Assembly (NCBI GenBank): GCA_029288775.1
Contig: JARIGQ010000006.1
Location: 120 to 64,119 of the forward strand
Origin: Candidatus Nomurabacteria bacterium
GTDB taxonomy: Bacteria > Patescibacteriota > Minisyncoccia > Phycocordibacterales > UBA5272
DNA: 64,000 nucleotides
Direction: 5' to 3'
Each line of letters begins with the position of its first letter. Positions within the stretch are counted from its first letter, which is position 1. The translations under genes and the position numbers were made by a program. Below the pieces are notes generated by a model that was not told the DNA's origin, did no database searches, and saw only the letters and a program-made list of their open reading frames with translations. This document shows positions 8,555 to 48,766 of the stretch, piece after piece.

Positions 8555-9052
8555 TTATTTCCAGGCCGCCATTTTCCTGTGAGCGCTATGAGTGAGCGCT
8601 ATGGCTATGGCATCAAGTTCGTCATCCAAAAGTGTTTGAGAAAGCGAATGTTTAAGAATTTTTGGCACCATAAGGGCAATATCCTCTTTTGAGGCTTTTC
8701 CATATCCTGTAACCGCCACTTTTATTTCGGGAGGGGAATATTCATAGGCAGAAAGTCCATGGGTATGGCAAAGATAAAGAATTACCCCCCGAACTTCTGC
8801 TACTTGCATGGCAGTAGTTTGGTTCTTTGCGAAAAAGAGTTTTTCTACGGCAAGTTCAGTTGGAGAGAATGTAGTGAGTACTTTCTCTAGCTCCTTACCT
8901 ATGTGTGCAAGGCGTACTTCAAAAGTATCTTTTTTAGAAGTCTCAACGCAAGTAGAGAAAAGAAGTTTTTCAATAGTGCCGCTTTTTTCAAGTACGCATA
9001 TACCCATTCGGTCAAAGCCCGGATCAATACCTAAAATGCGGACGGTTCCCAT
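8555..9052 (-). CDS. ruvC: Holliday junction resolvase RuvC
   Basis: Start MGTVRILGIDPGFDRMG, with the ILGIDPG motif and C-terminal LDAIAIALTHS. The track ORF extends upstream to 9175 and overlaps ruvB; the internal Met at 9052 leaves a 1-nt gap after the ruvB stop. Confidence 0.85.
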   Translation of the reverse strand: MGTVRILGIDPGFDRMGICVLEKSGTIEKLLFSTCVETSKKDTFEVRLAHIGKELEKVLTTFSPTELAVEKLFFAKNQTTAMQVAEVRGVILYLCHTHGLSAYEYSPPEIKVAVTGYGKASKEDIALMVPKILKHSLSQTLLDDELDAIAIALTHSAHRKMAAWK

Positions 9053-9053
9053 A

Positions 9054-10037
9054 TTACTTTTTAAAATAGGTGAGCGCTTTATCAGTTGCCTTACGGCCGC
9101 GTGGGGTGCGTTCCAACATGCCAATTTGTATAAGATACGGCTCGGTGACATCTTCAATCGTTGCTTCTTCTTCACCTGTTGCAGCAGCTAGCGTGTTTAA
9201 GCCAACCGGTCCGCCGTTAAAGGTATTGATGAGTGCATCAAGTACCATACGCTCCGCTACCCCTAGACCAAATTCATCAATCTCAAGCATAGATAAAGAT
9301 ACATCAACAATTTCGCGGTCTATATTTGCTTTGTGTACTTGGGCGTAATCACGCGCGCGCTTTAAATAGTAATTTGCTATGCGTGGAGTAAAACGCGAAC
9401 GCTTAGCAATTTCAAATGCCGCATCGTGAGGAAGCAGGGTACCTAAAATTTTTGCACTTTGCTTTACAATAGTTGCAATCTCATCCTCCGTATAATATTG
9501 CAAACGATACACACCACCTGAGAAGCGCGAACGAAGCGGGGAAGAAAGGAGTGAAATGCGTGTTGTTGCGCCAATCAAGGTAAAGGGAGGAAGGTCGAGC
9601 TGTATAGTGCGGGCTGAAGGGCCTTTGCCAATAACGATATCAAGTTTGCCGGATTCCATAGCTGGATAGAGTACTTCCTCAATCATTTTGTTCAGCCGAT
9701 GAATCTCATCAATGAACAACACATCTCCTGGGGCTAAGTTAGTAAGAATTGCGGCCAAGTCACCCACCTTCATAATCGCAGGGCCACTCGATACTTTAAG
9801 GTTGGCATTCAATTCCTTTGCAATAAGATGAGCAAGGGTTGTCTTGCCAAGTCCAGGGGGACCGTATAAAAGGATATGCTCCGGCGGAGCACCGCGTTCT
9901 TTGGCTGCCGTAAGTAGAATATGAAGATTTTTCTTGATGGTTTCTTGGCCAATATAGTCAGAAAAATGAGCTGGACGGAGTGTGCTGTCTAGGTGCCTGG
10001 TTTCTTCTATGGAAATGATGGGGTCGATGGCGCTCAT
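9054..10037 (-). CDS. ruvB: Holliday junction branch-migration ATPase RuvB
   Basis: Walker A GPPGLGKTTLA, Walker B LFIDEIHRL, sensor GATTR, and a C-terminal winged helix. Confidence 0.95.
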   Translation of the reverse strand: MSAIDPIISIEETRHLDSTLRPAHFSDYIGQETIKKNLHILLTAAKERGAPPEHILLYGPPGLGKTTLAHLIAKELNANLKVSSGPAIMKVGDLAAILTNLAPGDVLFIDEIHRLNKMIEEVLYPAMESGKLDIVIGKGPSARTIQLDLPPFTLIGATTRISLLSSPLRSRFSGGVYRLQYYTEDEIATIVKQSAKILGTLLPHDAAFEIAKRSRFTPRIANYYLKRARDYAQVHKANIDREIVDVSLSMLEIDEFGLGVAERMVLDALINTFNGGPVGLNTLAAATGEEEATIEDVTEPYLIQIGMLERTPRGRKATDKALTYFKK

Positions 10038-10055
10038 GGGGGAGAAGGGAAGGAT

Positions 10056-10083
10056 TTGACAAAAGTTTTTATTGTGATATAAT
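10056..10083 (+). promoter_or_regulatory. Near-consensus sigma70 promoter (TTGACA, 16-17 nt spacer, TGaTATAAT)
   Basis: TTGACA at 10056-10061 and an extended -10 TGATATAAT at 10075-10083. Lies between ruvB and the ATPase gene and points at a region without an ORF. Confidence 0.5.
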
Positions 10084-10089
10084 ATGGAT

Positions 10090-10303
10090 AGATACGTTAG
10101 AAACGTATTTTTGTTTGTCAGAACCTATACATCTCTAAACAATCGGAACTTTTTGTTTCACTTTCTAATTCGGAGGACGGTCTGGTACGCCTTGTGCGTT
10201 TCTGTGCCTATCCTTATGAAGGAATGTTCTTCACCAAGGGGTTGCTTAGAGGTGTATGCGTTGTGACTCCTGCAACAAACCGCCGCTTACTGCGGCGGTT
10301 TGT
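10090..10303 (+). ncRNA. Candidate small non-coding RNA (about 215 nt), class unknown
   Basis: A strong promoter upstream and an intrinsic terminator AACAAACCGCCGC-ttac-TGCGGCGGTTTGTTATTT at 10277-10303. The only ATG (10084) is inside the -10 box, so it would not be on the transcript. There are internal hairpins such as ATACGTTagaaAACGTAT. Confidence 0.3.
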
Positions 10304-10306
10304 TAT

Positions 10307-12010
10307 TTATGCATCTCCATAGAGATCAACCGCCTTACCTAATTCTTCAAGGGACGTAGTACCTTCCAGCACTTTAATTATACCATCCTCCTTAAGTGAG
10401 GGGATACCTTGGTTTTTGGATGCGTCACGCACCTCTCGTTCGCTTGGATTAAGAGGAAGAACTTTCTCCAATTCAGCATCCATAAAGATCGCCTCAAAGA
10501 TACCGATACGTCCCGAGTAGCCTGTGCCGCCACAGTGTTCGCAGCCAACCGGATGATAGAGCGTGTACGTAGGGGCGGGCTCATGTCCCATCATGGAATC
10601 AATTTTTCCCGAAACTTTCATATCGCCAAGCACGTTGGTAATGACTCTCGATTCCTTTTCATCAGCAATGTATTCCTGTCGACATACCTCACAGAGTGTG
10701 CGTACGAGTCGTTGAGCAAGAGCAACTGAGAGAGAGCTTGCAAGTGTTTTTGGATTCACTCCAAGTTCGATTAAGCGTGGCACGGTACCTGCTGCGTTAT
10801 TGGTGTGAAGGGTTGAGAATACAAGGTGGCCGGTAAGTGCGGCATTTACAGCTACTTTGGCAGTATCGTTGTCACGAATTTCTCCCACCATAATGATATC
10901 TGGGTCTTGTCTTAATGCTGCTCGAAGACCAGAAAGGAAGGTATACCCTTTTTCTTCTTCTACTTGGGTTTGAGTTATGCCTTCCAAGTGGTACTCCACC
11001 GGATCTTCAATAGTGATGATTTTTACTTCCGTGTTATAGACATGATGCAAAAAAGCATAGAGTGTAGTGGTTTTTCCAGACCCAGTAGGGCCGGTAGTAA
11101 GGATGACTCCGTTTGGACGAGAGAGCGCATGGTAGAGTTTTTCGCGAAGTATGGCAGGGAAGGCGATGTTATCAAGATTGGAAACACTGTGACGCGGATC
11201 AAGGAGTCGCATTACGAAGGATTCTCCGTAATTGCCAGGAATGACCGAAACACGCACTTCCACTTCCACATCTTCCAAGTCGATAGAGAAGCGACCGTCT
11301 TGTGCGTCTGCTATCGTAGATAACTTAAGTCCGGCGAGAAGCTTGAGACGACTAGTGATATTTTTGAGTGCATTGAAATCAAAAAAAGCAATGTCTTCCA
11401 AAATGCCGTTTAGTCGATAACGAAGCCGAACCTTGTCTTCTTCTGGTTCGATATGAATATCGGAAGCGTCAAATTGAAGCGCTCCTGCCATGATGAGTTC
11501 AATGATGCGCGTGGTTTTATACAACACTTGCGAGTTCATGAGCTGATCGAATTGAGCTTTGAGTTCTTCTACAGTATGAAAACTTTGCATAAGCTTTTCC
11601 ATCTTTGTTTTAGTAAGCTCAAGCATGCCACTTTCTACTTTGGAAGTTTGATTAAGGTCAGCGTACCGGGAAAGTACATGCTCAAGCGATGCATGGGATA
11701 CAAGGTAGAGAAGTATTTCATACCCACGGGTTTCAAGGGGACGAAGCATTTCTTCCATTTTTTCGCGATTAGGCGCAATGGTTGCTACATGGACTTTCCT
11801 TCCCACGATTTTAAAAGGCACGCAGCCTGCTTCTCTTGCGTCTTCTTCTTTTACCAATTGCATTGCGTCTGGTTCCGGAGCTAAACCGCGCAAATCAATA
11901 TACGGAAGGCCGTATTTGTCGGAAAGTATTTTGACCAAATCCTCTTCCTCTTGTCGGCGAAGATCTTCCAGCTCATGATTTTGTATCGTGTCATCGATAA
12001 GGTGGGGCAT
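10307..12010 (-). CDS. Type IV pilus / type II secretion assembly ATPase (PilB/GspE family)
   Basis: Walker A TGPTGSGKTTTLYA, Asp box, Walker B IIMVGEIRD, His box, and a C-terminal tetracysteine CEVC...CEHCGG. The N-terminal domain fits GspE/PilB. Confidence 0.85.
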   Translation of the reverse strand: MPHLIDDTIQNHELEDLRRQEEEDLVKILSDKYGLPYIDLRGLAPEPDAMQLVKEEDAREAGCVPFKIVGRKVHVATIAPNREKMEEMLRPLETRGYEILLYLVSHASLEHVLSRYADLNQTSKVESGMLELTKTKMEKLMQSFHTVEELKAQFDQLMNSQVLYKTTRIIELIMAGALQFDASDIHIEPEEDKVRLRYRLNGILEDIAFFDFNALKNITSRLKLLAGLKLSTIADAQDGRFSIDLEDVEVEVRVSVIPGNYGESFVMRLLDPRHSVSNLDNIAFPAILREKLYHALSRPNGVILTTGPTGSGKTTTLYAFLHHVYNTEVKIITIEDPVEYHLEGITQTQVEEEKGYTFLSGLRAALRQDPDIIMVGEIRDNDTAKVAVNAALTGHLVFSTLHTNNAAGTVPRLIELGVNPKTLASSLSVALAQRLVRTLCEVCRQEYIADEKESRVITNVLGDMKVSGKIDSMMGHEPAPTYTLYHPVGCEHCGGTGYSGRIGIFEAIFMDAELEKVLPLNPSEREVRDASKNQGIPSLKEDGIIKVLEGTTSLEELGKAVDLYGDA

Positions 12011-12083: not shown

Positions 12084-12111
12084 TTGACAAAATCTTATTT
12101 TAATGTATACT
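12084..12111 (+). promoter_or_regulatory. Promoter: TACTTGACAAAAT, 16 nt, TATACT
   Basis: It shares the 13-mer TACTTGACAAAAT with the promoter at 13671 and drives the GC-rich ORF at 12200. Confidence 0.5.
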
Positions 12112-12199
12112 ATATACAGCCTCAATAGATTGGCCCAACGTCCGTCTAAAGAGATCAGTGTCCTGACCTTTTCCAATTTTTTGCCCAAAGGAGGGCATC

Positions 12200-12880
12200 A
12201 TGAACCTGAAGAAATTCTTTTTCCTGTGCGCTTTCCTGTTTCTTTCCGGCGTCGCCTCCGCTCAGTACGGTACGTACATGTACCAGCCGAACGCTGGCGT
12301 GTGGGTACCTCCCCCGCGAGTGGGAGTTCCTGTCATCCCGGTGCAACAACCGGTGATCGTCGTGAATCCGGCGCCGCAACAACCGGTGATCCCCATGCAG
12401 ATGGTGACTACTGCCAGCCCTGGAGTTTTCTCCTCGGGTGGCAGCTACTACCGCTGCTCCGCCATTCGGCAAGTCGCCGGCGGTCTTCTCGGTGCCCTGG
12501 GGGGCTGGGCTATTGGCAAGAACATCACCCTGAACGGCCACCACCTGAATACAGGAGGAGCCATTGCAGGAACGATGCTTGGCGCCGAGGTTGCCTGCGA
12601 GATGGTCGGGCCCACGCAAGTGGGCACACCGGCTGGCCAAGTTACCTTGAACGCCTCCGCGCAGCAAGTTGCGGTTCCTGCGGGTTCGAGACTGACCTAC
12701 AGTAACGAGTCCACCGGCGCCGATTCTTGCCGGGCGCTTTCCGACGGCACTCTCGTGCTGAAGGATGGTACTTCCACGCAACATGGGCAGGTTATCGCCA
12801 CCGAAAGCCAATACCCCAAACAGCAAGGCGAAGACTGCAACCATTGGCGCCGTCGCGTGGCGCCAATGGTCGTCCGCTAA
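12200..12880 (+). CDS. Secreted protein with a signal peptide, a Pro/Gln-rich linker and a glycine-zipper-like segment; member of a two-gene paralogous family
   Basis: Signal peptide MNLKKFFFLCAFLFLSGVASA-QY and RBS AAGGAGG. GC about 60%, against about 40% in the flanks. C-terminal block C..LSDG....LK......GQVIATE.Q.P......EDCN.WR.R.A..VVR shared with ORF 13031-13612. Terminator at 12899-12928. Confidence 0.6.
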   Translation: MNLKKFFFLCAFLFLSGVASAQYGTYMYQPNAGVWVPPPRVGVPVIPVQQPVIVVNPAPQQPVIPMQMVTTASPGVFSSGGSYYRCSAIRQVAGGLLGALGGWAIGKNITLNGHHLNTGGAIAGTMLGAEVACEMVGPTQVGTPAGQVTLNASAQQVAVPAGSRLTYSNESTGADSCRALSDGTLVLKDGTSTQHGQVIATESQYPKQQGEDCNHWRRRVAPMVVR

Positions 12881-12940
12881 TCCTTCAAGGATCCCACGAA
12901 ACCCCTCTTTCGAGAGGGGTTTTTCTATTGGTTTTATATG

Positions 12941-12968
12941 TTGACAAAAAATAAAAAACATGTATAAT
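12941..12968 (+). promoter_or_regulatory. Sigma70-like promoter: TTGACA, 16 nt, (TG)TATAAT
   Basis: TTGACA at 12941-12946 and TGTATAAT at 12961-12968, upstream of ORF 13031. Confidence 0.5.
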
Positions 12969-13030
12969 ATATATCGCAAGCACATCACGGTCGTGATGTG
13001 CGATAAGGATGATCTTTTAGTGGAGAACAT

Positions 13031-13612
13031 ATGTTCAAGCGATTCATTGGAGCGCTCGCGTTCGTCATGCTGCTTTCCATCACGGGGTGCGGCTGGTGGA
13101 AGGACAAGCCGGAGATGGTCACTATCTCCAAAACCGAGCACGAGAACCTTAAGGCGCAAGCCTCCAAGGTTCCGGGTCTCGAACAGTCCAACAAGACCCT
13201 GCAAGGCAAGGTCACCGAACTCGAAAAGCGCCCGGCGATCGAGGTGGCGGACACGAAGGATGTGGAGGAGATGGTGAAGAAGTATTGCGGTCCCAAGCCG
13301 CAGGCCTCCGTCCGCCGTGTGGTGCACACTCCGCGTCAGACGCAGATGGTGCCGCCCCCGGGACCTGCTCTGCCAGCACCGAACGGTCAGGCGGACTGGC
13401 TTCGTTCAGGGGAGGTGTGCCGCCTCCTTTCGGACGGCAGTGCATACCTGAAGACGACCCCAGGGGTGATCATTCCGCGAGGACAAGTTATCGCGACCGA
13501 ACCCCAGGATCCGCGCCCTTACGGCTACTTCGTGCAACGGATGGCCAAGCAGAGCACGGAGGATTGCAATCAGTGGCGCAACCGCGCCGCAAGCATCTAC
13601 GTGGTCCGCTGA
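13031..13612 (+). CDS. Lipoprotein-type secreted paralogue of ORF 12200-12880, with a coiled-coil segment
   Basis: Lipobox LSITGC. Coiled-coil stretch KTEHENLKAQASK...LQGKVTELEKR. Same C-terminal block, including EDCNQWRNRAASIYVVR. GC about 60%. Terminator at 13627-13664. Confidence 0.6.
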   Translation: MFKRFIGALAFVMLLSITGCGWWKDKPEMVTISKTEHENLKAQASKVPGLEQSNKTLQGKVTELEKRPAIEVADTKDVEEMVKKYCGPKPQASVRRVVHTPRQTQMVPPPGPALPAPNGQADWLRSGEVCRLLSDGSAYLKTTPGVIIPRGQVIATEPQDPRPYGYFVQRMAKQSTEDCNQWRNRAASIYVVR

Positions 13613-13672
13613 ACCCAGCCTGCTTGCAAAAAGCCCCGCGAAATGCGGGGCTTTTCTCTTTATTTTATGTAC

Positions 13673-13701
13673 TTGACAAAATAGTTCACTTGATGTATAA
13701 T
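13673..13701 (+). promoter_or_regulatory. Consensus sigma70 promoter TTGACA-17-TATAAT
   Basis: TTGACA at 13673-13678 and TATAAT at 13696-13701, inside the shared TACTTGACAAAAT context. RBS AGGAG is 11 nt before the ATG at 13732. Confidence 0.55.
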
Positions 13702-22104: not shown

Positions 22105-22665
22105 TTATTTCATTTTACTTAAAGCGTCTTTAATAAGAAGGGAAGTGCTCGGCTGATTGGCATCTACCTTTTGAAGAACATCATGTATTTCTTTTGAGGA
22201 ATAACCAAGCGCTTCAAGTGCAAGACGTACTTCAAACAAAGCATCAGGCTTACTCGCATCTTGGAATCGAGAGAGTTTACCTTTGAGCTCGAGAATGATT
22301 TTTTCTGCAGTTTTTTTACCAATGCCGGGGGAATGGGAGAGGGCTTGGGCATCACCTTGCTCAACCGCGTCTGCTATTGAGGCTGGCGAATGTACCGAAA
22401 GCATGCCGAGCGCAGACTTTGGGCCAATGCCAGAAACATTAATGAGATGTTCAAATACCTCAAGCTCACTTTTTTGTTCGAAGCCAAACAAAGCAAGTTG
22501 GTCTTCGCGCACATGTGTATGGATATGAAGCTCAATCTCAGATCCCGGTACTTTTGAAAGCAATAAAGGAAGAGGGGAAAGTACACGATAACCTACACCG
22601 CCAGTTAGAACAATGATTTCTTTTTCTGACACAGCGCCCACTACGCCTTTGAGGTACCCAATCAT
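22105..22665 (-). CDS. ruvA: Holliday junction DNA helicase RuvA
   Basis: OB fold MIGYLKGVV...VGYRV, tandem HhH VSGIGPKSALGMLS and PGIGKKTAEKIILEL, and a C-terminal domain III. Confidence 0.9.
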   Translation of the reverse strand: MIGYLKGVVGAVSEKEIIVLTGGVGYRVLSPLPLLLSKVPGSEIELHIHTHVREDQLALFGFEQKSELEVFEHLINVSGIGPKSALGMLSVHSPASIADAVEQGDAQALSHSPGIGKKTAEKIILELKGKLSRFQDASKPDALFEVRLALEALGYSSKEIHDVLQKVDANQPSTSLLIKDALSKMK

Positions 22666-37852: not shown

Positions 37853-40800
37853 ATGAGCAGGGTACGAATGCTAAACGCAACATTCGGTTCGCTCACGAGA
37901 GATTCTCGTAGATTTTTGTATTCTCTTCTCCGAAAAAAGGCACTCATAATGAGTGCTCTTTTAGTTTTTGTGCAGCTTTTGACTCCGGTTGCAACTATAT
38001 ATGCCGCTGCAACGGTTTCTAACGATATAGGATCTGCAGCTTCCTTGGATCCAGTAGGTAATAAAGCGACACGTCTTCAAGGTCAAGGATCTTCAGGTGT
38101 TGACCAATCGTCGGGGGCGCTTACGTATACCTACCCTTTGACTTTACCGGATGGTAGAAATGGAATGGCTCCAAAGCTTTCTTTGTCATACAACTCTCAA
38201 AATAATGATTCAGGATGGTTCGGGCACGCTTGGACAATAAATATTCCCTACGTTGAAAGAACAACAAAAACTGGGTCCGACAAGATGTATAGTAATCCCG
38301 TATTTGTTTCTTCTCTGCATGGTGAGCTTACTTCCAGTAATGGGATTAATTATGAGCAAAAGGTGGATGATGGTTCTTACCCCAAATATACATACTCTGG
38401 AAATACGTGGCAAATGACTGATAGGGATGGCACAACCTATTATTTTGGGAATACTTATACTAGCCGAATACAGGATGATGCTGGAACGCTTATAGGTAGA
38501 TGGTATCTAACTGAAGTTCGCGATAAGTTTGGGAATGGAATTCTTTATGGTTATACCAAGGATTCTGGCACCGTATATCCGAGTACTGTTTCCTATACTG
38601 AACACGCACTGGCACACCCTCTTAATTTGGTTAGCTTCACTTTAGAAAATAAAACAGATCAACTACCAAGCTATAAATATGGCTTCAAAACTACTGATAC
38701 GAAGAGAGTATCTGCTATTAAAGTAAGCACAAACGGCAAAGACAACTCATATTTCTACTTTACTTATACATTCGGGTCAAATGGAGTGCGTTCTCTTCTT
38801 CAATCCATCGAGAAAAAACATCTAAGTACAAATGGCGATTGGACTACCCTCCCTAAAACAACTTTTGATTACGAGAAGTCTGCCCCAAGCTTCTCAGGGA
38901 CTATTTCTAATAGTGTTAACCCTTATGGAGGCAATGTTGTTATGGATACAGACGGTAATGGGATTTTAGACCTTTATAATGCAGGTGATGGATACTTTCC
39001 TGTTGAAATTAACGGTGATTATAAGAAAGACCTTGTTCAAGCAGAAATTACATATGGAGCATACTCTTCTGGGCAAAATATAAATTTTAAGTATAACCAA
39101 GGAAGCAGCACTTTCTTATTAAGAAATCTTAAGAAACCTACATCTTCCGCATATATAAGAAGTATGGTAGCTGGAAATCCTATACCTCCTTTGCGGTACT
39201 TGCCCGAAGGAGGTTCAGGGTGGGGACAAGAGTCTGTGGTAGCTGATGTTAATGGAGATGGGTTTGATGATGTGGTGTATAACGATCCTTATGGGAATAA
39301 TGGTGTTGGTGTGAATACTACAAATAATACTTTTGACTACAGCACTCCTACTAATCTTTGGTTTAGCGTACTCAATGATCAGCTTGTTGATATTAACGGT
39401 GACGGGTTACAGGATAAAATATCTAAGTCTACATCTGGAACTACTACATATAGTATTTATTTAAATACTGGGAGTGGATATTCTACAACAACTTACTATG
39501 TTTACAGTACAGGAACCGCGTTGCCTGCTGAATATGATACGGGTGTTAGATTTGTCGATATAAATAATGATGGTTTGGTTGACTTTGTAAGATCTTATTA
39601 TTCTAATTACTCGGGTACTGGAAATCCTACCTGTACTGATTCATATTCTCCTGTACCTACCACTGCTCCAATTAACCAGTCTGTAAGCCAGTACTATATA
39701 AATACCGGGACTGGTTTTACAGCATCAACCTCACCCCTTAGTGGATACATTATCAATTACGGTAGTTGTGCTTATGGAATGACTTCAGGTTTCTTGGTAA
39801 CAAAAAGTACTAAAGAATACGATACTGACGGTGATCTGGATACCGACTATGATGGAGCTACTAATAATACAAAGAAGCAAGATGTCCTCACCAATGTAAC
39901 TAGCTCTCTCGGGTCCACCCTCAGTGTTTCATATTCATGGACTACAACTGGTGGACTTAATCCTACACTACCTGTTCCAATGTATACGGTTGCAACTACA
40001 ACCGAAAAGTTTTCACTTTCTGATCCAGCTCCTCACATTGTTTCTTATAGCTTCCAAGATGGGCAAATGTACTATGACGATTCCGCTCCTCGTGATCATA
40101 AGTTTGCCGGATTCGGTAAAGTTGAAGTGGTAGATGGAAATAAAAAAACCGTCACCTATTTCCACCAAGGTAATGGTGATAACCTCAGCACAGGAGAAAA
40201 AGGGGATTCTTATTACAATATTGGAAAATCTTACCGTACTGACACCTTCGATCTATCCTCCGGTACCTCAACTTTAGTCAGTAAAGATCTTTCACTCTAT
40301 ACCACGTACTCATATGCTTCCTCTTCGTTTACATACCTAGATAGTCAAATAAAGAATCTATATAATTCTGATGGATCTTATGTATCTTCAGCAAGCAGAA
40401 ATGTGTACGATGAAACTAAGCGTCTTATTAAGACTTCCTACAACTATGGAGATATTGAACCGTTCATTTCCTTTGCTTCTTCAACTATTACAGACAAGGG
40501 GTCGGACCTCACAGTAACTTCATATATATATTCAAATACACGTCCACAACGCTTGGTTAAGCAGACAACTACAGACTACTCAGGACAGACAATAGGAAAT
40601 ACTGCCTACTACTATGATGGACTTCCTTATGGATTAGTAGATAAGGGAGCTGTAACCACAACCTTAGATACTATTTATAATAGTGACGGTACGGTAAACG
40701 CCACAAGCTCAACGCAAGTTGAATATGATCCCACGGGAAATGTAACTAAAACAACGGATGCTCTTGGGAACATAACTAAAGTTTCCTATGACAGCTCTTA

Positions 40801-43800
40801 CTACTTTCCAACACAAAAAGTTGATGCGCTTAACGGAACAACTACGTATTCTTATGACCCTTATACACTTAACTTATTATCTACTAAAGGACCAGATGGA
40901 ATAACCTATACCAAAGAAACAGATGGATTAGGTAAGGTTACTCGATCTTATACCCTGGATTCTGGAGGGGGTGTTCACGATGAAGTAAGGATCAATTATG
41001 TGTACGGAGGTGGTCTTACTGTTTATACACGAAAAATGGGTTCAAGTGGACAGGAAGCTCGCTCTGTAGACATTTACGATAGTTATGGGAGGTTAATTCA
41101 ATCTAAAAAGGAAAGCACCGTTGATTCTTTTTCTACCCAAGACACAACTTACGATGCAAGCAGTAATGTTACCTCAGTATCATTGCCATACATCACAACA
41201 GGGTATGGATATACACCCGGTACTCCAACAAATGGAAAAACCATATATACCTACGATGGTCTTGGAAGAGTGACAACTAAGGAGGCTTTTGGAAGTAAAG
41301 CAACTTACCAGTACGGTGCTCGATCGCTAACTGTCCAAGATAATGCGTCTACTCAGCACAAGAAAACATATATCTATGATGCCAACGGCAACTTGGCTAC
41401 TGTCCAGGAATACAACAATGGTAGTACGTACACAACTTCATATTCCTATACTCCAACAAATAAACTTTCTCGTATAAGTGACGCAAATGGGAACATTAGA
41501 AATTTCAGCTACCTATCTAATGGGCTTTTAACATACCAAGAAGACTCACACCCGTCTTCAGATTCAACATTTACCACTTATTCCTACACCTATGATTCCT
41601 TAGGAAACCTTCTTTCAAAAATAGGACCGCTTGGCTCAATAATTTACTCATATGATGCTCTAAGTCGACCTACAACGAGAGTTGTGTCAGATGCGACTAA
41701 TGGAACATCCACCGTCTCTCTTTCATATACAGGCTGTGCGAACAACTATGTTTCTCCTTGTGTCATTAACCGAGGCACATCTTCAACGACTCTAACTTAC
41801 AATTCTTATGGAAAATTAGGAAGTGAAATGCTTTCTATCGATGGAAAAACCTATACCCGCTCTTACGCTTACGATACCTTTAGTAATCCGACAACTATTA
41901 CATATCCTGACAACGGTCAAGCTATCTACTCCTATACTTTAGATGGGAAACAAGCTTCACTTTCATATATAACCCCAAGTGGCAGCACGAAATCTATTGT
42001 TAGCAACACCACATTTAACTCAATAGGGGATCTTTCTTCCTACTCTTTGGGTAACGGGATACAGCTTTGTAATACATACACTACGACATCTACCGATGGA
42101 GTGATCTCTCCAAAATTAGGAAAATCGGTATACCTCTTCAACTCAGTAGGATGCTCTCTTTCGGGTTCTAACCAAGTTGAGCTCTATAAGGATGAATTTA
42201 CCTATAAGGACTACATGACTCCAAGTAATATTCTTACAACGTACAAGGATATTGCTGGAACTACCCATACAAAGAGTGATAGTTTTACCTATGATAATCT
42301 TGCTCGCTTAACTCAAACTTCTACTTCCTATGATGGGGGAGGGGCTTTAGTGGATAGTCTTGTCTATGATCCGATTGGAAACATTATTAGTGAAAATAAT
42401 GTTTTGTATCGTTATAGCAAGGACGGAATGCAAAATGCTAACGCAGTGACCTCTATTGGAGGTGTTAACGTCTCTTATGACTCTCAAGGAAACCGTATCC
42501 AGTCTGGAGATAACTCGTATGCATGGAATACTCTCAATCAGTTAGTTTTAGCTACAAGTAGTAACGGTACGGAACGTTATACTTATGATGAAAATGGAGA
42601 ACGACTTAAAAAAGTGGTCCAAGCAAGTGTCCTTATCAATCAAAAAGTTACCCCTTCTACTACTGGTCTAGCAATTAGCACCCTATCCCAAGGCGACCTT
42701 TTGGCTCAAGTTGCCACATCAAGTACCTATATTGCCACTTCTACATACAATACGCTATCTTCGCTTTCGTTACTAGATAAGACGTCTTTGTTCAACTTGG
42801 TCACCGGGTATTACGCTTCACCATTTACAAGCAAGTTCTGTGCTGCAACATCTACCGCAAATCGTCAGACGTGTATTTCTGATACGACTAAGCAACTGCT
42901 GGCAAATGACATAAACCAAAGAAGTACGAGTACCGTTGCTACCACAGGACTTATAACCGATATTATTAAAATTTCAACAGGGGAGTATCTTATTCCTTCC
43001 TCATATGTAGGAATAGCTACAAGTAGTATTGCAATCAGTAGTCAAGCGACATTTACAGTAAATAGTGGAACTATTAGTTCATATAACACCTATGTAGCTA
43101 CAGGAATTGTCGTCGCACTTGATCAATATAGTAATCTTCCTTACGTATCCACGAGTACCTACACCACTCTTGCTTCACTTGGACTGATAGATACCACTAA
43201 AGTAAAAACCGTAATGATCCTTGCAGGTTGTAACTCTGTGGCATCTGCTTGTACGACTGCCAAAAAGGTGATCTTTGAAAAATATTACAAAGAAAGTGGT
43301 TATCTCCTTTCTGATCGTGCTCTACAGGAAATGTGGTATGTATATGCTGCTAAAGCTCGATTGCCCGGTAATTCTACTGAATTAACATCTACTTCAACTT
43401 ATCTTGGTAGTATTTCTGTTCCTTCAGTAACCTCTCGAAGTAGCAGTAGTGCTACGAGTACATATTATTCTGGTTTGTACTTTACAACGGAATACACTAA
43501 CCAAAATACAGCGGAGCCGAGGTTGCAATACTTTAATACAATTCCTTATTACATTACTCCCACTGCGTTTGGTGAACTTCAGGCAGCGGGGATTACCCAA
43601 ACAACAGTTCAAAGTTACCAATCTCAAATTGATGATTTACTGTCCATCAAATACGCATCTTCTACGGAGTACATGGTTGCCCTACAGTCATTTGCCAAAA
43701 ACGATAAGGGGGTAACGCTAAGCTGGAACACTCTAAAAGAGCTCTATCTAGTCGTAATTGGCGCAGCAAGTATCCCTAATAATACCGGAGACTATACCCA

Positions 43801-46800
43801 AAACGCAGTATATGACTTATCTAACTATTTAGTGATCAATAGTTATAAGACAGTCAGTGGACAGTTCACTTTACAGTGGACTACAGCTTGTAATGGAGGT
43901 TATGTTTCTAGTCTTACCTACTCTCGTTGTGTGATAGGAACTTCACCCTTTAGCCTTTCCGTTTCATCCTCAACTTCTGTAAGTTATATTCTGTCGCTTA
44001 AAAATAGTCCAAACCCAACAGAAACAACTCTTCTTATGGGTTCTTCGACAAATACTACTATGGGTACAGATAGTTATAACTACGCAACTGATTTACCTCA
44101 TATATTTAACGGTTACTATACGCAAACATTTAGTTCAGATGGTGTTCGTATAGATGCTGATGTTACTCCAACTATACTTACACAGCAAGCTAGTAGTACT
44201 TCGCCATTAAAGATACTTATTAGTAATGATTCGCAATGGTCTTCAGATCCATACACGTGGGAAGCAACCTCAGTAACGCTTAAGGCTTATGCTAATACCT
44301 CGAGACTTACACTAGCTTCTACTACGCTAGTTTCAGGAGTGACAAATGCCACTACTACAAGTTTTACTGCAGGCATCCAGAGCACAATTGCTTCTTACTT
44401 CGGCGAAAATCATGATAGTTCTTTTGATGTAAGTACAGGAACTACATCACCACTTGTTTTCATCTCTCCGGAATCATATCGAGAATTTGCTTCCACTACC
44501 CTCAAGGATGCATATCAGATTACTAAAGTCTTTATGGCTACTTCAACAACGCAGTGTGCTTCAGCGGCCTCGACTACGGAATGTGATAAAACTCTTCGTA
44601 AGGCCGCGTTTAGAGAAATAGTTACCAACTTAAGTGGTTTTACACCAAGTCAGGCTGCTACTGAAGAATTTTGGATGGTGCATAAAGGAATCTTGGCTCT
44701 TCCCAATGTTTCATTTGCTTCTACGACTGCGACAACTACGGTCAATGGTTATTATCAGGCAACTTCAACTATAGGTTCATGGTATATCATGGTTTCTCCG
44801 GGTAATTACACGTATTATGTAGCAACGTCGAGTGCGGTATTGCCTGCAATTGTTTCTTCCACTTCTACTCCGTATCCAGTTTTTGCTAGATCTAACCTAC
44901 CGAATTCACTTTCAACAAGTACTACGTATCTTACATCTACTACAACCATTCCTGGGTTCTGGGTAGACCAGGTGGTGTATCAAGATTCTCCAACTGGTGG
45001 AGCTACGAGCACGACTGGTTCTTACACAGTGCATACGTTTAATTCCTCAGGAACATTTACTGTTCCATCCGGGGCAAGTTTTAACGCTGAAGTTCTTGCT
45101 GTGGGAGGCGGGGGAGGCGGGGGAGGATCTCAAGGTGGTGGAGGAGGTGGTGGTCAAGTAATCGCCAGTTCAACCGTTGCATTCACTGCGGGTTCATATT
45201 CTGTGACTATCGGAAGCGGTGGGGGAGGAGGGGATGCTGGTGGAACTACAGCTGGTGGAGATGGAGCCACGACAACATTTGTAGGCATTACAGCAAAAGG
45301 GGGCAAAGGGGCGCCACGTCAAACCAACTTAAATGGTGGAAATTCTGGAAGTGGTAAAACAGGCGGTACAGGAATACTTTCCGGTTACTACCCATCTGGT
45401 GGAGGCGCGGGAGATTTTGCGAATGGAGTAAATGGGTCAGGTTCTGCATCTGGGAATGGAGGAACTGGAACATCATCCTCTATTACAGGAAGTTCTTTGG
45501 GTTATGGCGGTGGAGGCGGTGGAGGGGGAGATTCGCAAGGTTCTACTCCTGGTAGTGGTGTAGATGGCGGAGGAAATGGAGCAACAGCCTTTGTAAGTTC
45601 ACCAGGTTCATCTGGTACTGCTAATAGAGGAGGCGGAGGAGGTGGGGGTAGTAATGATAATGGTTGTCACTGTGCCGGAACGGCTGGAGGTGATGGCGGT
45701 TCTGGCGTGGTAATTGTTCGTTATCTGACATCTCTGTTCCCATTCAATGCAACGACTACAACTCACGTGTATATTGCAACAACTACTATCATTGCTCCAG
45801 TAACACATCTTGATTTGGTGCCTTCAGGAGTGCTTACGGATACACAATTTACTACTACGTACGCAACATCCAGTTTTGCTTTGGCAACTACGACGAAGGG
45901 AGTAAGTCAAGATACTTACAACGAGCTTCTAAGAACCCCAGTACGCTTAAATTCTGATGTGACCACTGTATTTACTTATGCTCTTCCATTTGCAACAAGT
46001 TCATGCCCGGGTCAGACAGCTACAAGTAGTTGTGTTATTACTGCTCAAAAGACAAAAGCTAAAGACACAATAAGCGCCCTCTCGGGATTCGTCTTGTCAG
46101 ATGCTGCACTAGAAGAGCTATACCGAGTTAATTCAGGAGATTTATCAATTATTCCAATGAATCTCACGAATGCTGCAACATCTTCATCGAATCAAACTAT
46201 TATTCTGCCTCTTGATAAATCTCGAGCCTATACATCCTACAGTACATCAACCGCTTCAGGAACCACTACATCTTCAGTAGGGGGCAGCTGTTCATTCGGA
46301 ACTACTGGCGCTACAACAACGAAGTGTAAAATCGGCTTACCAGATCTGAACACTATAATCCAAAGCGCTACCTTCAAATACGATCTTTCTACTTCTACCG
46401 TCTCAACAAGTACGTTACTGCTTAACTTTACCTATCTTACTCAGGTTGCCTCCACAACAGGTGCAACATCCACTCCTCAATTTACAGCTGTGTCTTCTTC
46501 GACAACAGTTACTGGTCAAAAGTCTGGCACTTCTACGTTTAGCTTCGATCTAAGCTCGTACTACGTAGACTTTATGGCAGCAACGACGTCTACATTTATT
46601 TTGACTCCTGATGCAAATGGAACATCGACTCAAGTTTTCCAAGTACTAAACCCTATACTTACGTTTAATAGATATATTTCTAATCAAAGCATTACATACG
46701 CAACAACCACTCAATTTATTCCATTTGATAGGTCCGCTATCCCTTCTTATGCGACCACAACTGCAACAACCTCAATCGATCTGACAAACACCCCGCCTAT

Positions 46801-48766
46801 CGAGCTATCGATGATGTTTTCTCCAGAAGCTGGGACTTTTGTCCTTAATTCTACGCCTAGTACTTATCTAGTTGGAAACACAGGTATGGTTGCTTATTAC
46901 AAATTAGACAGTAATTCCAATGATGCAGCAGGTTCTACCAACGGATCTGACACCAACATTACGTACTCTTCAGGAAATGGGAAGCTAAACAACGGAGCTG
47001 GATTCAATGGAACCAATAGTACCGTTGCATTAGGAACAGGTCTCAACCTTGCAGGAGGCGGCATGACGATTGCGGGCTGGGTATACATAAATACCAATAG
47101 CCTTTATCAAGAAGCCATCCTCAACAAGCGTGATGTTGGAGGAACAATGCAGTATCAGTTCTATGTAGAAAACAGCGCGGCAAAGCTCGCTTTCTACACA
47201 GGTACTCAATATAATTCAACCTCCGCTGTAGGAAGTAACGGGTGGCATCATGTGGCAGTCACGCTTTCAAATTCCTCAAACGGAAATCTAACTTTCTATA
47301 TAGATGGAGTTCAGAGTGGAACAGCCTCGAGCGTAAACCTTGGTTCAGGAACATCAGCAAGAGTTGCTATTGGTAGTCAAGGATCTGCAGACTACGACTT
47401 CTTCCATGGAGCCATTGACGAACTAGGTGTTTGGTCCCGCACACTTTCTTCTACGGAGATTGCTAATCTTTATAATAGTGGAAGTGGCCTAGCATATCCA
47501 TTTGCAACTGTAGGGTCATCACGACAAGAGTCCTATGCAGGGTCTGAGATAGATGACAGCTATCTGTATTCTACAAGCACGCAGAACATTCTCCCCGCAG
47601 TATCTTATCCATACGCTACAAGTACAGCCACCTCTACTGTATACAGTCTTACAACGGCTACCACTACTTCGTACACCCTCTATACTCCATTCTCAAACTA
47701 CCAAGACGACAGTAGGGGAACCATCACAAGTTATCTAACCTTCAATGGCAAACTCATAGCTGCGTATACATACCAAAGTGGTCAAGAAGCTTCCACCGGA
47801 AAGCTAACGTACATATTGGTGAATTACTTGGGTACCCCTGTACTATCCACGGACGCACATGGAGACATTACGGAGATGGACGTCACCGACTCTTTCGGAA
47901 ACTACGTTCATAGAGATAGGAGAAACGACAATGCAGAGCACACCCGGGGGTTTACTAATCAAGATTTCGACGATGTTACAGGATTAAACTATTTCCATGC
48001 TCGTCTTCTTGACCCGAAGGCCCACACCTTCCTTTCGGTAGATCCAGTAATTTATAACTTAGTAAGTAATAACAACGAAGACAGATTACGCTTTGTTAGT
48101 GCATTAATTAATCCACAAGCTCAAAATAGTTACTCTTATGTTGGTAATAATCCCATAACAAATATCGATCAAGACGGCCGTTGGTGGGTAGAGGTTTCAG
48201 CATCACTTGCTGGATCTGGACGTACGGGTTCTATAGGTTTTAGATTTGATGATACAGGAATTGATTATTTCCAGTCGGGAGGATTTACAGCGGGTTCAGG
48301 AGCTTTTGCTGGGATAGTAATATCTCCGTATGGCTCACTCTCACATCAGGCTCAATCCACTACTAATGTTACTTTTCAAGCAGCAAAAGTTGTAGGAGGT
48401 CAAATTAGTGGAGATCTGGCCACGTATTCTGTCAATGCTAAAAGCATGGTTCCAAATGATAAACCTTCAGGTGGTATAATATTTGGACTAGGAGCGAGCG
48501 CTTCTGTCCAGCAAGAAGTTTCAACTCCATTGGTCAGTTTTGGGAAGAATACTCAGCCAACAAATTCAGTACCTAAGACGTCAACAAATGCTGTTCAAGG
48601 TAGAATGAGTCCGCAGAGTATTATAGGACCAACATTACCCCAGCAGTCAAATCAAACAAAAACTAACACTGCTCCCAAAGTTAACATAAACCCTACTCAG
48701 CAGAGTCAACAGGGAGGAATATTAAATACCGTCAATAATTGGTTCAACAATATATTTAAAAAATAA
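37853..48766 (+). CDS. Giant RHS/Tc-toxin-B-like polymorphic toxin (3637 aa): SpvB domain, FG-GAP/VCBS repeats, RHS/YD repeats, Thr/Ser-rich regions, poly-Gly blocks, LamG domain, RHS core end, and an unknown C-terminal domain
   Basis: N-terminal TM/signal segment. SpvB/TcdB N-domain (GALTYTYPLTLPDGRNGMAPKLSLSYNS...GWFGHAWTINIPYVERTTK). DxDGDG FG-GAP-like repeats (DTDGNGILDL, DVNGDGFDDVV, DINGDGLQDK, DINNDGLVDFV). More than 15 YD repeats (YxYDxxGN(L/V)). G8-G9 runs around 45.1-45.7 kb. LamG/concanavalin fold (WHHVAVTLS...FYIDGVQSG...AIDELGVWSRTLS). RHS core terminus ...YFHARLLDPKAHTFLSVDP...NNPITNIDQDGRWW, then a roughly 195-aa Gln/Asn/Thr-rich tail. Confidence 0.9.
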   Translation: MSRVRMLNATFGSLTRDSRRFLYSLLRKKALIMSALLVFVQLLTPVATIYAAATVSNDIGSAASLDPVGNKATRLQGQGSSGVDQSSGALTYTYPLTLPDGRNGMAPKLSLSYNSQNNDSGWFGHAWTINIPYVERTTKTGSDKMYSNPVFVSSLHGELTSSNGINYEQKVDDGSYPKYTYSGNTWQMTDRDGTTYYFGNTYTSRIQDDAGTLIGRWYLTEVRDKFGNGILYGYTKDSGTVYPSTVSYTEHALAHPLNLVSFTLENKTDQLPSYKYGFKTTDTKRVSAIKVSTNGKDNSYFYFTYTFGSNGVRSLLQSIEKKHLSTNGDWTTLPKTTFDYEKSAPSFSGTISNSVNPYGGNVVMDTDGNGILDLYNAGDGYFPVEINGDYKKDLVQAEITYGAYSSGQNINFKYNQGSSTFLLRNLKKPTSSAYIRSMVAGNPIPPLRYLPEGGSGWGQESVVADVNGDGFDDVVYNDPYGNNGVGVNTTNNTFDYSTPTNLWFSVLNDQLVDINGDGLQDKISKSTSGTTTYSIYLNTGSGYSTTTYYVYSTGTALPAEYDTGVRFVDINNDGLVDFVRSYYSNYSGTGNPTCTDSYSPVPTTAPINQSVSQYYINTGTGFTASTSPLSGYIINYGSCAYGMTSGFLVTKSTKEYDTDGDLDTDYDGATNNTKKQDVLTNVTSSLGSTLSVSYSWTTTGGLNPTLPVPMYTVATTTEKFSLSDPAPHIVSYSFQDGQMYYDDSAPRDHKFAGFGKVEVVDGNKKTVTYFHQGNGDNLSTGEKGDSYYNIGKSYRTDTFDLSSGTSTLVSKDLSLYTTYSYASSSFTYLDSQIKNLYNSDGSYVSSASRNVYDETKRLIKTSYNYGDIEPFISFASSTITDKGSDLTVTSYIYSNTRPQRLVKQTTTDYSGQTIGNTAYYYDGLPYGLVDKGAVTTTLDTIYNSDGTVNATSSTQVEYDPTGNVTKTTDALGNITKVSYDSSYYFPTQKVDALNGTTTYSYDPYTLNLLSTKGPDGITYTKETDGLGKVTRSYTLDSGGGVHDEVRINYVYGGGLTVYTRKMGSSGQEARSVDIYDSYGRLIQSKKESTVDSFSTQDTTYDASSNVTSVSLPYITTGYGYTPGTPTNGKTIYTYDGLGRVTTKEAFGSKATYQYGARSLTVQDNASTQHKKTYIYDANGNLATVQEYNNGSTYTTSYSYTPTNKLSRISDANGNIRNFSYLSNGLLTYQEDSHPSSDSTFTTYSYTYDSLGNLLSKIGPLGSIIYSYDALSRPTTRVVSDATNGTSTVSLSYTGCANNYVSPCVINRGTSSTTLTYNSYGKLGSEMLSIDGKTYTRSYAYDTFSNPTTITYPDNGQAIYSYTLDGKQASLSYITPSGSTKSIVSNTTFNSIGDLSSYSLGNGIQLCNTYTTTSTDGVISPKLGKSVYLFNSVGCSLSGSNQVELYKDEFTYKDYMTPSNILTTYKDIAGTTHTKSDSFTYDNLARLTQTSTSYDGGGALVDSLVYDPIGNIISENNVLYRYSKDGMQNANAVTSIGGVNVSYDSQGNRIQSGDNSYAWNTLNQLVLATSSNGTERYTYDENGERLKKVVQASVLINQKVTPSTTGLAISTLSQGDLLAQVATSSTYIATSTYNTLSSLSLLDKTSLFNLVTGYYASPFTSKFCAATSTANRQTCISDTTKQLLANDINQRSTSTVATTGLITDIIKISTGEYLIPSSYVGIATSSIAISSQATFTVNSGTISSYNTYVATGIVVALDQYSNLPYVSTSTYTTLASLGLIDTTKVKTVMILAGCNSVASACTTAKKVIFEKYYKESGYLLSDRALQEMWYVYAAKARLPGNSTELTSTSTYLGSISVPSVTSRSSSSATSTYYSGLYFTTEYTNQNTAEPRLQYFNTIPYYITPTAFGELQAAGITQTTVQSYQSQIDDLLSIKYASSTEYMVALQSFAKNDKGVTLSWNTLKELYLVVIGAASIPNNTGDYTQNAVYDLSNYLVINSYKTVSGQFTLQWTTACNGGYVSSLTYSRCVIGTSPFSLSVSSSTSVSYILSLKNSPNPTETTLLMGSSTNTTMGTDSYNYATDLPHIFNGYYTQTFSSDGVRIDADVTPTILTQQASSTSPLKILISNDSQWSSDPYTWEATSVTLKAYANTSRLTLASTTLVSGVTNATTTSFTAGIQSTIASYFGENHDSSFDVSTGTTSPLVFISPESYREFASTTLKDAYQITKVFMATSTTQCASAASTTECDKTLRKAAFREIVTNLSGFTPSQAATEEFWMVHKGILALPNVSFASTTATTTVNGYYQATSTIGSWYIMVSPGNYTYYVATSSAVLPAIVSSTSTPYPVFARSNLPNSLSTSTTYLTSTTTIPGFWVDQVVYQDSPTGGATSTTGSYTVHTFNSSGTFTVPSGASFNAEVLAVGGGGGGGGSQGGGGGGGQVIASSTVAFTAGSYSVTIGSGGGGGDAGGTTAGGDGATTTFVGITAKGGKGAPRQTNLNGGNSGSGKTGGTGILSGYYPSGGGAGDFANGVNGSGSASGNGGTGTSSSITGSSLGYGGGGGGGGDSQGSTPGSGVDGGGNGATAFVSSPGSSGTANRGGGGGGGSNDNGCHCAGTAGGDGGSGVVIVRYLTSLFPFNATTTTHVYIATTTIIAPVTHLDLVPSGVLTDTQFTTTYATSSFALATTTKGVSQDTYNELLRTPVRLNSDVTTVFTYALPFATSSCPGQTATSSCVITAQKTKAKDTISALSGFVLSDAALEELYRVNSGDLSIIPMNLTNAATSSSNQTIILPLDKSRAYTSYSTSTASGTTTSSVGGSCSFGTTGATTTKCKIGLPDLNTIIQSATFKYDLSTSTVSTSTLLLNFTYLTQVASTTGATSTPQFTAVSSSTTVTGQKSGTSTFSFDLSSYYVDFMAATTSTFILTPDANGTSTQVFQVLNPILTFNRYISNQSITYATTTQFIPFDRSAIPSYATTTATTSIDLTNTPPIELSMMFSPEAGTFVLNSTPSTYLVGNTGMVAYYKLDSNSNDAAGSTNGSDTNITYSSGNGKLNNGAGFNGTNSTVALGTGLNLAGGGMTIAGWVYINTNSLYQEAILNKRDVGGTMQYQFYVENSAAKLAFYTGTQYNSTSAVGSNGWHHVAVTLSNSSNGNLTFYIDGVQSGTASSVNLGSGTSARVAIGSQGSADYDFFHGAIDELGVWSRTLSSTEIANLYNSGSGLAYPFATVGSSRQESYAGSEIDDSYLYSTSTQNILPAVSYPYATSTATSTVYSLTTATTTSYTLYTPFSNYQDDSRGTITSYLTFNGKLIAAYTYQSGQEASTGKLTYILVNYLGTPVLSTDAHGDITEMDVTDSFGNYVHRDRRNDNAEHTRGFTNQDFDDVTGLNYFHARLLDPKAHTFLSVDPVIYNLVSNNNEDRLRFVSALINPQAQNSYSYVGNNPITNIDQDGRWWVEVSASLAGSGRTGSIGFRFDDTGIDYFQSGGFTAGSGAFAGIVISPYGSLSHQAQSTTNVTFQAAKVVGGQISGDLATYSVNAKSMVPNDKPSGGIIFGLGASASVQQEVSTPLVSFGKNTQPTNSVPKTSTNAVQGRMSPQSIIGPTLPQQSNQTKTNTAPKVNINPTQQSQQGGILNTVNNWFNNIFKK

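Follow-up and report, generated by a model that had tools for sequence, protein, structure and literature searches.

The element considered here lies between ruvB and the gene of a PilB/GspE-type (T2SSE) ATPase in a 64-kb stretch of DNA from a Candidatus Nomurabacteria bacterium (contig JARIGQ010000006.1). This whole stretch of 64,000 nucleotides (nt) is referred to below as the window; all coordinates are those of the window, and its plus strand is the strand of the RNA. The two genes are separated by a gap of 269 nt, which holds a gene of about 215 nt whose predicted product is non-coding and structured. On our reading this gene stands on its own and encodes a highly structured small RNA restricted to Paceibacteria, that is, to Parcubacteria-type bacteria of the candidate phyla radiation (CPR). 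The neighbours named in the original prediction, ruvB and a PilB-like ATPase gene, are borne out by their Pfam domains. The features of the locus are as follows.

9054 to 10037, minus strand: ruvB, the divergent neighbour (Pfam RuvB_N, AAA_lid_4, RuvB_C)
10056 to 10061, plus strand: -35 box TTGACA of the RNA promoter (promoter match 12/12; exact TTGACA in 128 of 142 homologues)
10075 to 10083, plus strand: extended -10 element, TG at 10075-10076 and TATAAT at 10078-10083 (16-nt spacer; promoter match 12/12)
10090 to 10110, plus strand: predicted 5' end and 5'-terminal leader hairpin (-6.1 kcal/mol, z = -3.0)
10117 to 10144, plus strand: 5' strand of the closing helix P1, pairing with 10240-10267
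10145 to 10159, plus strand: hairpin P2, GGAAC-UUUUU-GUUUC (compensatory changes in 3/3 modelled pairs)
10164 to 10223, plus strand: P3, a long hairpin of irregular shape, invariant in its internal motifs and variable in the apical hairpin (10188-10198)
10228 to 10239, plus strand: mini-hairpin P4, UCUU-CACC-AAGG, abutting the 3' strand of P1 with no linker
10240 to 10267, plus strand: 3' strand of P1 (GGUUGCUUAGAG...), pairing with 10117-10144
10274 to 10309, plus strand: intrinsic terminator, a 13-bp hairpin at 10274-10304 with a U-rich tail, shared with the convergent pilB-type gene
10307 to 12010, minus strand: gene of the PilB/GspE-type ATPase, the convergent neighbour (Pfam T2SSE, MshEN)

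The unit begins with a sigma-70 promoter. The original prediction called it a near-perfect promoter with an extended -10 element, and the match is indeed complete, TTGACA and TATAAT agreeing with the consensus in every position, at a spacing of 16 nt and with TG in place. Perfect TTGACA-N16-18-TATAAT sites occur three times within the window, with 0.07 expected from shuffled sequences. Of 142 homologues from the sets described below, 119 have an upstream sigma-70 promoter on the RNA strand that matches at least 10 of the 12 positions; the corresponding counts are 11 for the opposite strand and 5 for shuffles. The extended -10 element is kept as TGnTAnnnT in most homologues. Transcription would start at the A in position 10090, 7 nt past the -10 box. 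The leader between the start site and P1 (median length 42 nt) is not conserved in sequence, and in 79 of 107 homologous leaders a hairpin begins within 5 nt of the predicted 5' end, as expected of a stabilising 5' stem-loop.

The unit ends at a strong intrinsic terminator, as had been proposed: a G+C-rich hairpin of -24.1 kcal/mol (z = -5.8) followed by UAUUUAU, with its end 3 nt short of the stop codon of the convergent ATPase gene. The minus-strand fold of the same segment is equally good, which indicates a two-way terminator shared by both genes. The predicted transcript thus runs from approximately 10090 to 10306-10309, a length of about 215-220 nt, of which about 150 nt form the core. 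The stretch 10088-10306 folds with -84.7 kcal/mol (z = -7.1), and none of 200 shuffles folds as well. Two kinds of 3' ends are common among 141 homologues: in 50 of them a U-run directly follows P1, so that P1 itself would be the terminator stem, and in 48 there is a separate hairpin terminator. The promoter-to-terminator unit of the original prediction is therefore confirmed, the window and its homologues carrying what in sequence is an independent sigma-70 unit with an intrinsic terminator, in one copy per locus and per 64-kb window.

The conservation of the element was analyzed in two sets of loci. The first consists of 80 genome loci of related Paceibacteria fetched through RuvB, whose proteins are 67-93% identical to that of the window. 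The intergenic element was identified by nhmmer in 64 of these loci, and by the covariance model R1, built from an alignment of 59 copies (A1), in 78, always just upstream of ruvB and on the opposite strand. One of the two loci missed by R1 (L071) lies on a contig that ends only about 190 nt upstream of ruvB; in the other (L072), with its full flank, R1 gave no match. The second set comes from metagenomes and was collected with a DNA pattern derived from the RNA alone, the motifs of the pattern being invariant by construction. At least 120 metagenome contigs match this pattern, with RuvB proteins only 58-91% and ATPases 44-73% identical, so the RNA has been kept across a wide evolutionary span.

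The loci found via the RNA alone retain the same neighbours. Divergent ruvB is present in 105 of the 106 metagenome loci with enough flank, and the convergent ATPase gene in 75 of 82, at times up to 2.4 kb off. The RNA-only pattern gave no matches in viral contigs; this, together with the single copy at a syntenic site, led us to reject a mobile or phage element. The four-helix fold described below is common to roughly 200 related bacteria of the ultra-small CPR/Paceibacteria type.

The only locus with the RNA and its promoter and without upstream ruvB is L143 (OUNP010007072.1, 1-300). Its divergent open reading frame (ORF) has 51 codons, and no long ORF occurs elsewhere on this contig of 2 kb, which may be a chimeric or low-quality assembly.

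The core of the RNA (10117-10267) is modelled by RNAalifold on A1 as a four-way junction of helices P1, P2, P3 and P4, with 50 base pairs, 26 of them showing compensatory changes. The junction-proximal half of the P1 5' strand, AUCUCUAAACAAUC, is nearly invariant, and the distal half covaries. In particular, the inner 12 bp of P1 are invariant, AUCUCUAA-R-CAAUC pairing with GAUUG-Y-UUAGAGAU. When the pairs detected by mutual information are added, P1 becomes a continuous helix of about 26 bp; this extension is the only addition made by mutual information, and candidate pseudoknots and tertiary pairs were discarded, none of them rising above the background.

Hairpin P3 contains the invariant AGGAC (10174-10178) opposite CUAUCCU (10208-10214), with an invariant 1x2 internal loop C/UA, and the invariant pairs U-G, G-U and G-C between 10183-10185 and 10202-10204 (a tandem G-U). 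The base of P4 is conserved; the hairpin has 4 bp in the window and is longer in distant homologues (8-9 bp, covarying). The linkers of the junction are about 0-1, 4-10, 4-6 and 0 nt long, the two middle ones measuring 4 and 4 nt in the window. Compensated variation is observed in the outer half of P1, in P2, in the apex of P3 and in P4, and the invariant parts lie near the junction. No single-stranded seed conserved across the family was seen in the alignments, which argues against action by base-pairing with mRNAs.

One position of the invariant part of P1 is irregular: 10139 and 10245 form an A-C opposition in the clade of the window, and G-C or G-U in distant clades. An A-C opposition can be isosteric to a G-U wobble if protonated, so this is a conserved irregularity in an otherwise perfect helix.

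The fold was also evaluated on 68 distinct metagenome sequences, none of which had been used in model building. In the alignment of these sequences, which was fitted to the model, 92.4% of the helix cells are standard pairs and 34 of the 50 pairs have changed on both sides. The covariation score is 0.419, compared with 0.151 in shuffles, and none of 500 shuffles reaches it. When the partners are slid by 1-3 columns, pairing falls to 35-53% and the covariation score to 0.05-0.12. Moreover, the AUCC and UGG/CUG positions of P3, which are outside the search pattern, are invariant in 66-68 of the 68 sequences. The secondary structure is thus conserved in sequences independent of the model. Conservation in related genomes and covariation had been named as checks when the element was predicted, and both, with 78 of 80 loci, at least 120 metagenome contigs and compensatory changes in 26 (A1) and 34 (independent sequences) of the 50 pairs, favour its interpretation as a stand-alone small RNA, as do the strand and the promoter.

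A multi-helix junction with conserved junction-proximal nucleotides is also what a ligand- or signal-sensing RNA might look like, and a gene lies directly downstream in convergent orientation. The element could accordingly be imagined as an orphan riboswitch-like aptamer, choosing between termination and read-through antisense to the pilB-type gene, and about one third of the homologues have no obvious terminator. We consider this very unlikely. A perfect P1 of about 26 bp is far too stable for ligand switching, we saw no alternative (antiterminator) pairing that is conserved, none of the Rfam riboswitches matches the element, and the terminator of the window copy is very strong. The element does not have the organization of a cis-regulatory leader either, its downstream gene being convergent.

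The strand of the RNA follows from the asymmetry of its non-canonical pairs. In the helix cells, G-U and U-G combinations outnumber A-C and C-A ones 503 to 37 in alignment A1 and 459 to 54 in alignment A3, that is, about 10:1, which identifies the plus strand as the RNA strand. Read on the opposite strand, the helices would keep only 80% pairing instead of 92-96%. The opposite assignment would make the element a structured spacer or 5' leader in a pilB-ruvB operon transcript of the minus strand: both genes are co-oriented there, ruvB has no canonical promoter, and the minus strand also folds well (z = -5.2). It is contradicted by the asymmetry of the pairs and by the conserved promoter on the plus strand, and a minus-strand element was rejected.

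A second form of this objection is that the region encodes a peptide of 60 amino acids (aa), as the window and some close relatives have an uninterrupted ORF of 60 codons (10084-10266). However, in 46 of 57 close homologues the length between two invariant anchors departs from that of the window by a number that is not a multiple of three, and the frame is open over at least 40 codons in only 48 of 141 homologues, being closed in most distant copies. Moreover, the ATG of the ORF (10084) is upstream of the predicted start site at 10090. Neither frame nor start codon is conserved as in a small-protein gene, and a coding function of the ORF was rejected, in agreement with the original prediction, which had seen no protein-coding gene here. 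Its statement that the only ATG is located inside the -10 element proved incorrect: the ATG at 10084 directly follows the -10 box, and others are found at 10216, 10224 and 10256. Taken together, a minus-strand leader or a 60-aa peptide is highly improbable.

The element does not belong to any of the known RNA families with which it was compared. Of the 4227 families of Rfam 15, only tRNAs were found in the whole window at gathering scores, and with E-values up to 10 nothing relevant was obtained for the window element and two distant homologues. The only weak matches (E from 0.75 to 10) fell on the terminator hairpin or came from unrelated models of eukaryotic small nucleolar RNAs. These scans included the RNA of the signal recognition particle (SRP), transfer-messenger RNA (tmRNA), RNase P RNA, Y RNA, riboswitches and self-cleaving ribozymes, and agree with the original prediction, in which no resemblance to SRP, 6S, tmRNA or RNase P RNA had been recognized by eye. 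Since no test of membership in a known family was passed, the RNA is new at the family level.

The closest comparison, if a loose one, is with 6S RNA (ssrS; RF00013 and variants such as 6S-Flavo). Both are stand-alone single-copy RNAs of about 150-200 nt (up to 215 nt here) with a strong promoter, in which a long helix closes the 5' and 3' ends, a second long arm is capped by a loop, and a small hairpin is located on the 3' side of the central region, as in the 6S RNAs of E. coli and B. subtilis (PMC8876501). Conserved synteny with an unrelated neighbour is also shared, ssrS being linked to ygfA/fau in proteobacteria. A divergent 6S-type RNA would bind the sigma-70 holoenzyme as a mimic of the open promoter, P1 acting as the downstream duplex, P3 as the upstream '-35-like' arm and the junction as the central bubble, with the conserved 5' strand of P1 serving as the template for short product RNAs. 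The most conserved sequence of the element is indeed in the closing helix beside the centre, where such a product would be templated, and in the literature on CPR bacteria we found no report of 6S RNA.

We nevertheless regard a 6S-type RNA as unlikely. 6S RNA is defined as a rod with a relatively unstructured central bubble between two imperfect helical arms with loops and bulges (PMC8876501), whereas the element has a tight four-way junction with covarying hairpins on both strands and about 1, 4-10 and 4-6 unpaired nt, and its P1 is perfect over about 26 bp where the 6S arms are interrupted. The apical arm P3 carries invariant internal motifs, unusual for 6S arms. Covariance models give no match in either direction: the Rfam 6S models do not match the window copy and two distant homologues at E up to 10, and the score of R1 on E. 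coli ssrS is no better than chance. Because the bubble is absent, P1 is perfect and R1 misses ssrS, the element was not filed as 6S.

More general similarities exist with orphan lineage-specific RNAs, such as the raiA motif and the Rfam 'phylum-1' motifs. These are likewise intergenic and defined via conservation and covariation, with their own promoter and terminator, a complex fold, conserved internal loops and occurrence in a single lineage. The element differs from them in the absence of any sequence or structure match in the Rfam 15 scans, in its CPR/Paceibacteria hosts and in the interlocking of its promoter with the start codon of a protein gene.

The four-way junction closed by the 5' and 3' ends resembles tRNA-like cloverleaves and Y RNAs (YrlA), and the spacing of its linkers is tRNA-like: P1 and P2 are 1 nt apart, P3 and P4 are 4-6 nt apart, and P4 adjoins P1 directly (0 nt). 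The long terminal stem of Y RNAs ends in a U-run and can be likened to P1. Unlike these RNAs, the element has no T-loop or D-loop sequence and matches no tRNA or Y RNA model, and P1 has about 26 bp rather than 7 bp. No Ro/Rsr gene was seen next to the RNA, in an inspection that included no search aimed at Ro/Rsr.

The promoter of the RNA is positioned in a fixed register relative to ruvB. In the window, the ruvB start codon lies at a distance of 19 nt from the -35 box. In the close clade, 33 of 54 loci have the start of the RNA's -10 box 43-45 nt away from the ruvB ATG, and in distant clades 71 of 108 loci have it at exactly 16-17 nt. The ruvB genes of 97 of 139 distant loci begin with ATGTCAA, in frame and open. 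As TTGACAT is its reverse complement, ruvB codons 1-3 are overlapped by the -35 box of the RNA in these loci. The ruvB gene itself has no Shine-Dalgarno sequence, and a canonical promoter of its own was rejected, as one is present on the opposite strand in just 11 of 142 loci. On the minus strand, the -10 region of the window reads TATTAT (10084-10079), a possible -10 box of ruvB. The start sites predicted from sequence are then 18 bp apart, at A 10090 (plus strand) and A 10072 (minus strand).

In its sequence geometry this arrangement would fit a bidirectional promoter. Promoters whose two directions rest on -10 symmetry have been described (PMC10268837, PMC12825309), 18 bp being the commonest spacing of their start sites. 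As in the promoters of Warman et al. 2021, summarised in these two sources, TATAAT and TATTAT are here combined with reciprocal pairing of -11A and -7T, and one arm would yield a non-coding RNA, the other an mRNA. Unlike the spurious antisense transcripts described there, the product of the strong arm would be a conserved structured RNA; a further difference is that the RNA's -35 box and the start codon of ruvB overlap in distant relatives. The RNA and ruvB promoters would thus share one pseudo-symmetric -10 region, on which RNA polymerase would load in one direction at a time, the RNA being the strong arm and ruvB the weak one. The shared promoter region appears to be the cause of the link between the two genes, and would explain why they never separate.

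A C-rich motif (CCCC/CCCU on the ruvB mRNA strand) occupies the Shine-Dalgarno position of ruvB at 10038-10055, in the closest clade only. Its pairing with AAGGGG of the RNA was considered and rejected, as this segment is buried in P4 and P1, and the distant clades have neither feature. As to translation starts in general, 5 of the 32 long ORFs in the window have a Shine-Dalgarno-like motif, and many have a -10-like TAnnnT (TATACT, TAGACT, GATACT) ending 6-9 nt before the ATG, for example those at 1901, 3476, 7070, 29931 and 12010 (the minus-strand start of the ATPase gene). This suggests that leaderless or very short-leader mRNAs are widespread in this genome.

The fixed register, the overlap with the ruvB start codon in most distant loci and the adjacency to ruvB in 105 of 106 loci (that to pilB is looser) may also be read as a purely cis-acting arrangement. 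In this case the strong promoter would throttle ruvB by occupying the shared promoter, perhaps also colliding with read-through from pilB, and the RNA would merely accumulate as a stable by-product, its structure having no use other than as a terminator or insulator, consistent with the use of P1 and a U-run as the terminator in many homologues. We consider this improbable as the whole explanation. A by-product would not keep compensated helices, invariant loops and a tandem G-U in loci whose RuvB proteins are only 58-70% identical, and a simple hairpin suffices for a terminator. The effect on ruvB, moreover, is compatible with the preferred explanation and already part of it.

The explanation we prefer, and hold to be reasonably probable, is that the gene encodes a stable and abundant protein-binding RNA acting in trans, and that its promoter also limits ruvB in cis. 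The variable 5' hairpin and the long terminal helix would make the RNA stable and abundant, and it would bind protein through the invariant junction-proximal parts of P1, P3 and P4.

Several points weigh against this explanation. The genes of the neighbourhood (pilus ATPase, recombination) point to no RNA-binding partner protein. A perfect helix of 26 bp would be a substrate of RNase III, so the mature RNA may not be identical to the primary transcript. Both ends of the RNA are predicted ones, and by a simple heuristic about one third of the homologues have neither a U-run after P1 nor a recognisable terminator. Finally, the divergent start site of ruvB is deduced only from the symmetry of the -10 region.

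The RNA may represent a new class of housekeeping RNA forming an RNA-protein complex, unrelated to 6S, SRP, tmRNA, RNase P and Y RNAs; we put this forward tentatively. Equally tentative is the corollary that such a class is confined to a major CPR branch and genetically welded to ruvB, the gene of a recombination motor. It is, on the other hand, most improbable that the four-way-junction RNA acts on the machinery of recombination or DNA uptake, either as a decoy resembling a Holliday junction for RuvA/RuvC or as a cofactor of RuvB. Its location is the sole support for such a role, and RuvA is encoded elsewhere in the window.

The CPR, or Patescibacteria, have tiny genomes and few known regulators, and in the literature on CPR, Patescibacteria, Parcubacteria and Saccharibacteria we found no described small RNA. 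An RNA of about 150 nt that stays at a single locus, under a consensus promoter and with a covarying four-helix fold, among lineages with RuvB proteins of just 58-70% identity, is likely to have a central role. New structured RNA families turn up fairly regularly; this one comes from a poorly understood radiation, and is a candidate to fill the 6S-like or other RNA-protein role that CPR bacteria apparently lack. In practical terms it is a concrete new family with an alignment, a structure and a covariance model, usable for Rfam and for the annotation of hundreds of metagenome-assembled genomes. It is also a clear case, found in nature, in which a strong promoter of a non-coding RNA and the start codon of a gene for DNA repair are interlocked.

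The other ruv genes of the window are arranged as follows. The listed ruvC ORF (8555-9175, minus strand), with GTG as its start codon, shares about 120 nt with the 3' end of ruvB. As the RuvC domain recognized by Pfam begins only at residue 47, translation of ruvC probably starts further downstream, with little or no overlap. The ruvA gene, identified with E. coli RuvA as the query, is located on the minus strand (22120-22665) at a distance of about 12 kb from ruvB, whereas a classical ruvAB operon would have it immediately before ruvB. In the window this upstream position is occupied by the RNA gene. The idea that the RNA replaces RuvA there was rejected, ruvA being present in the window.

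Two further perfect consensus promoters of the window, at 12941-12968 and 13673-13701, and a near-perfect one at 12084-12111 form a cluster (12084-13701) in a G+C-rich island, with a G+C content of 0.54 compared with about 0.42 elsewhere. The island contains two paralogous ORFs (12200-12880 and 13031-13612) with similar C-termini and no Pfam match, and a strong terminator at 12898-12923. Further along the window there is a giant ORF of 3637 aa (37853-48766, plus strand).

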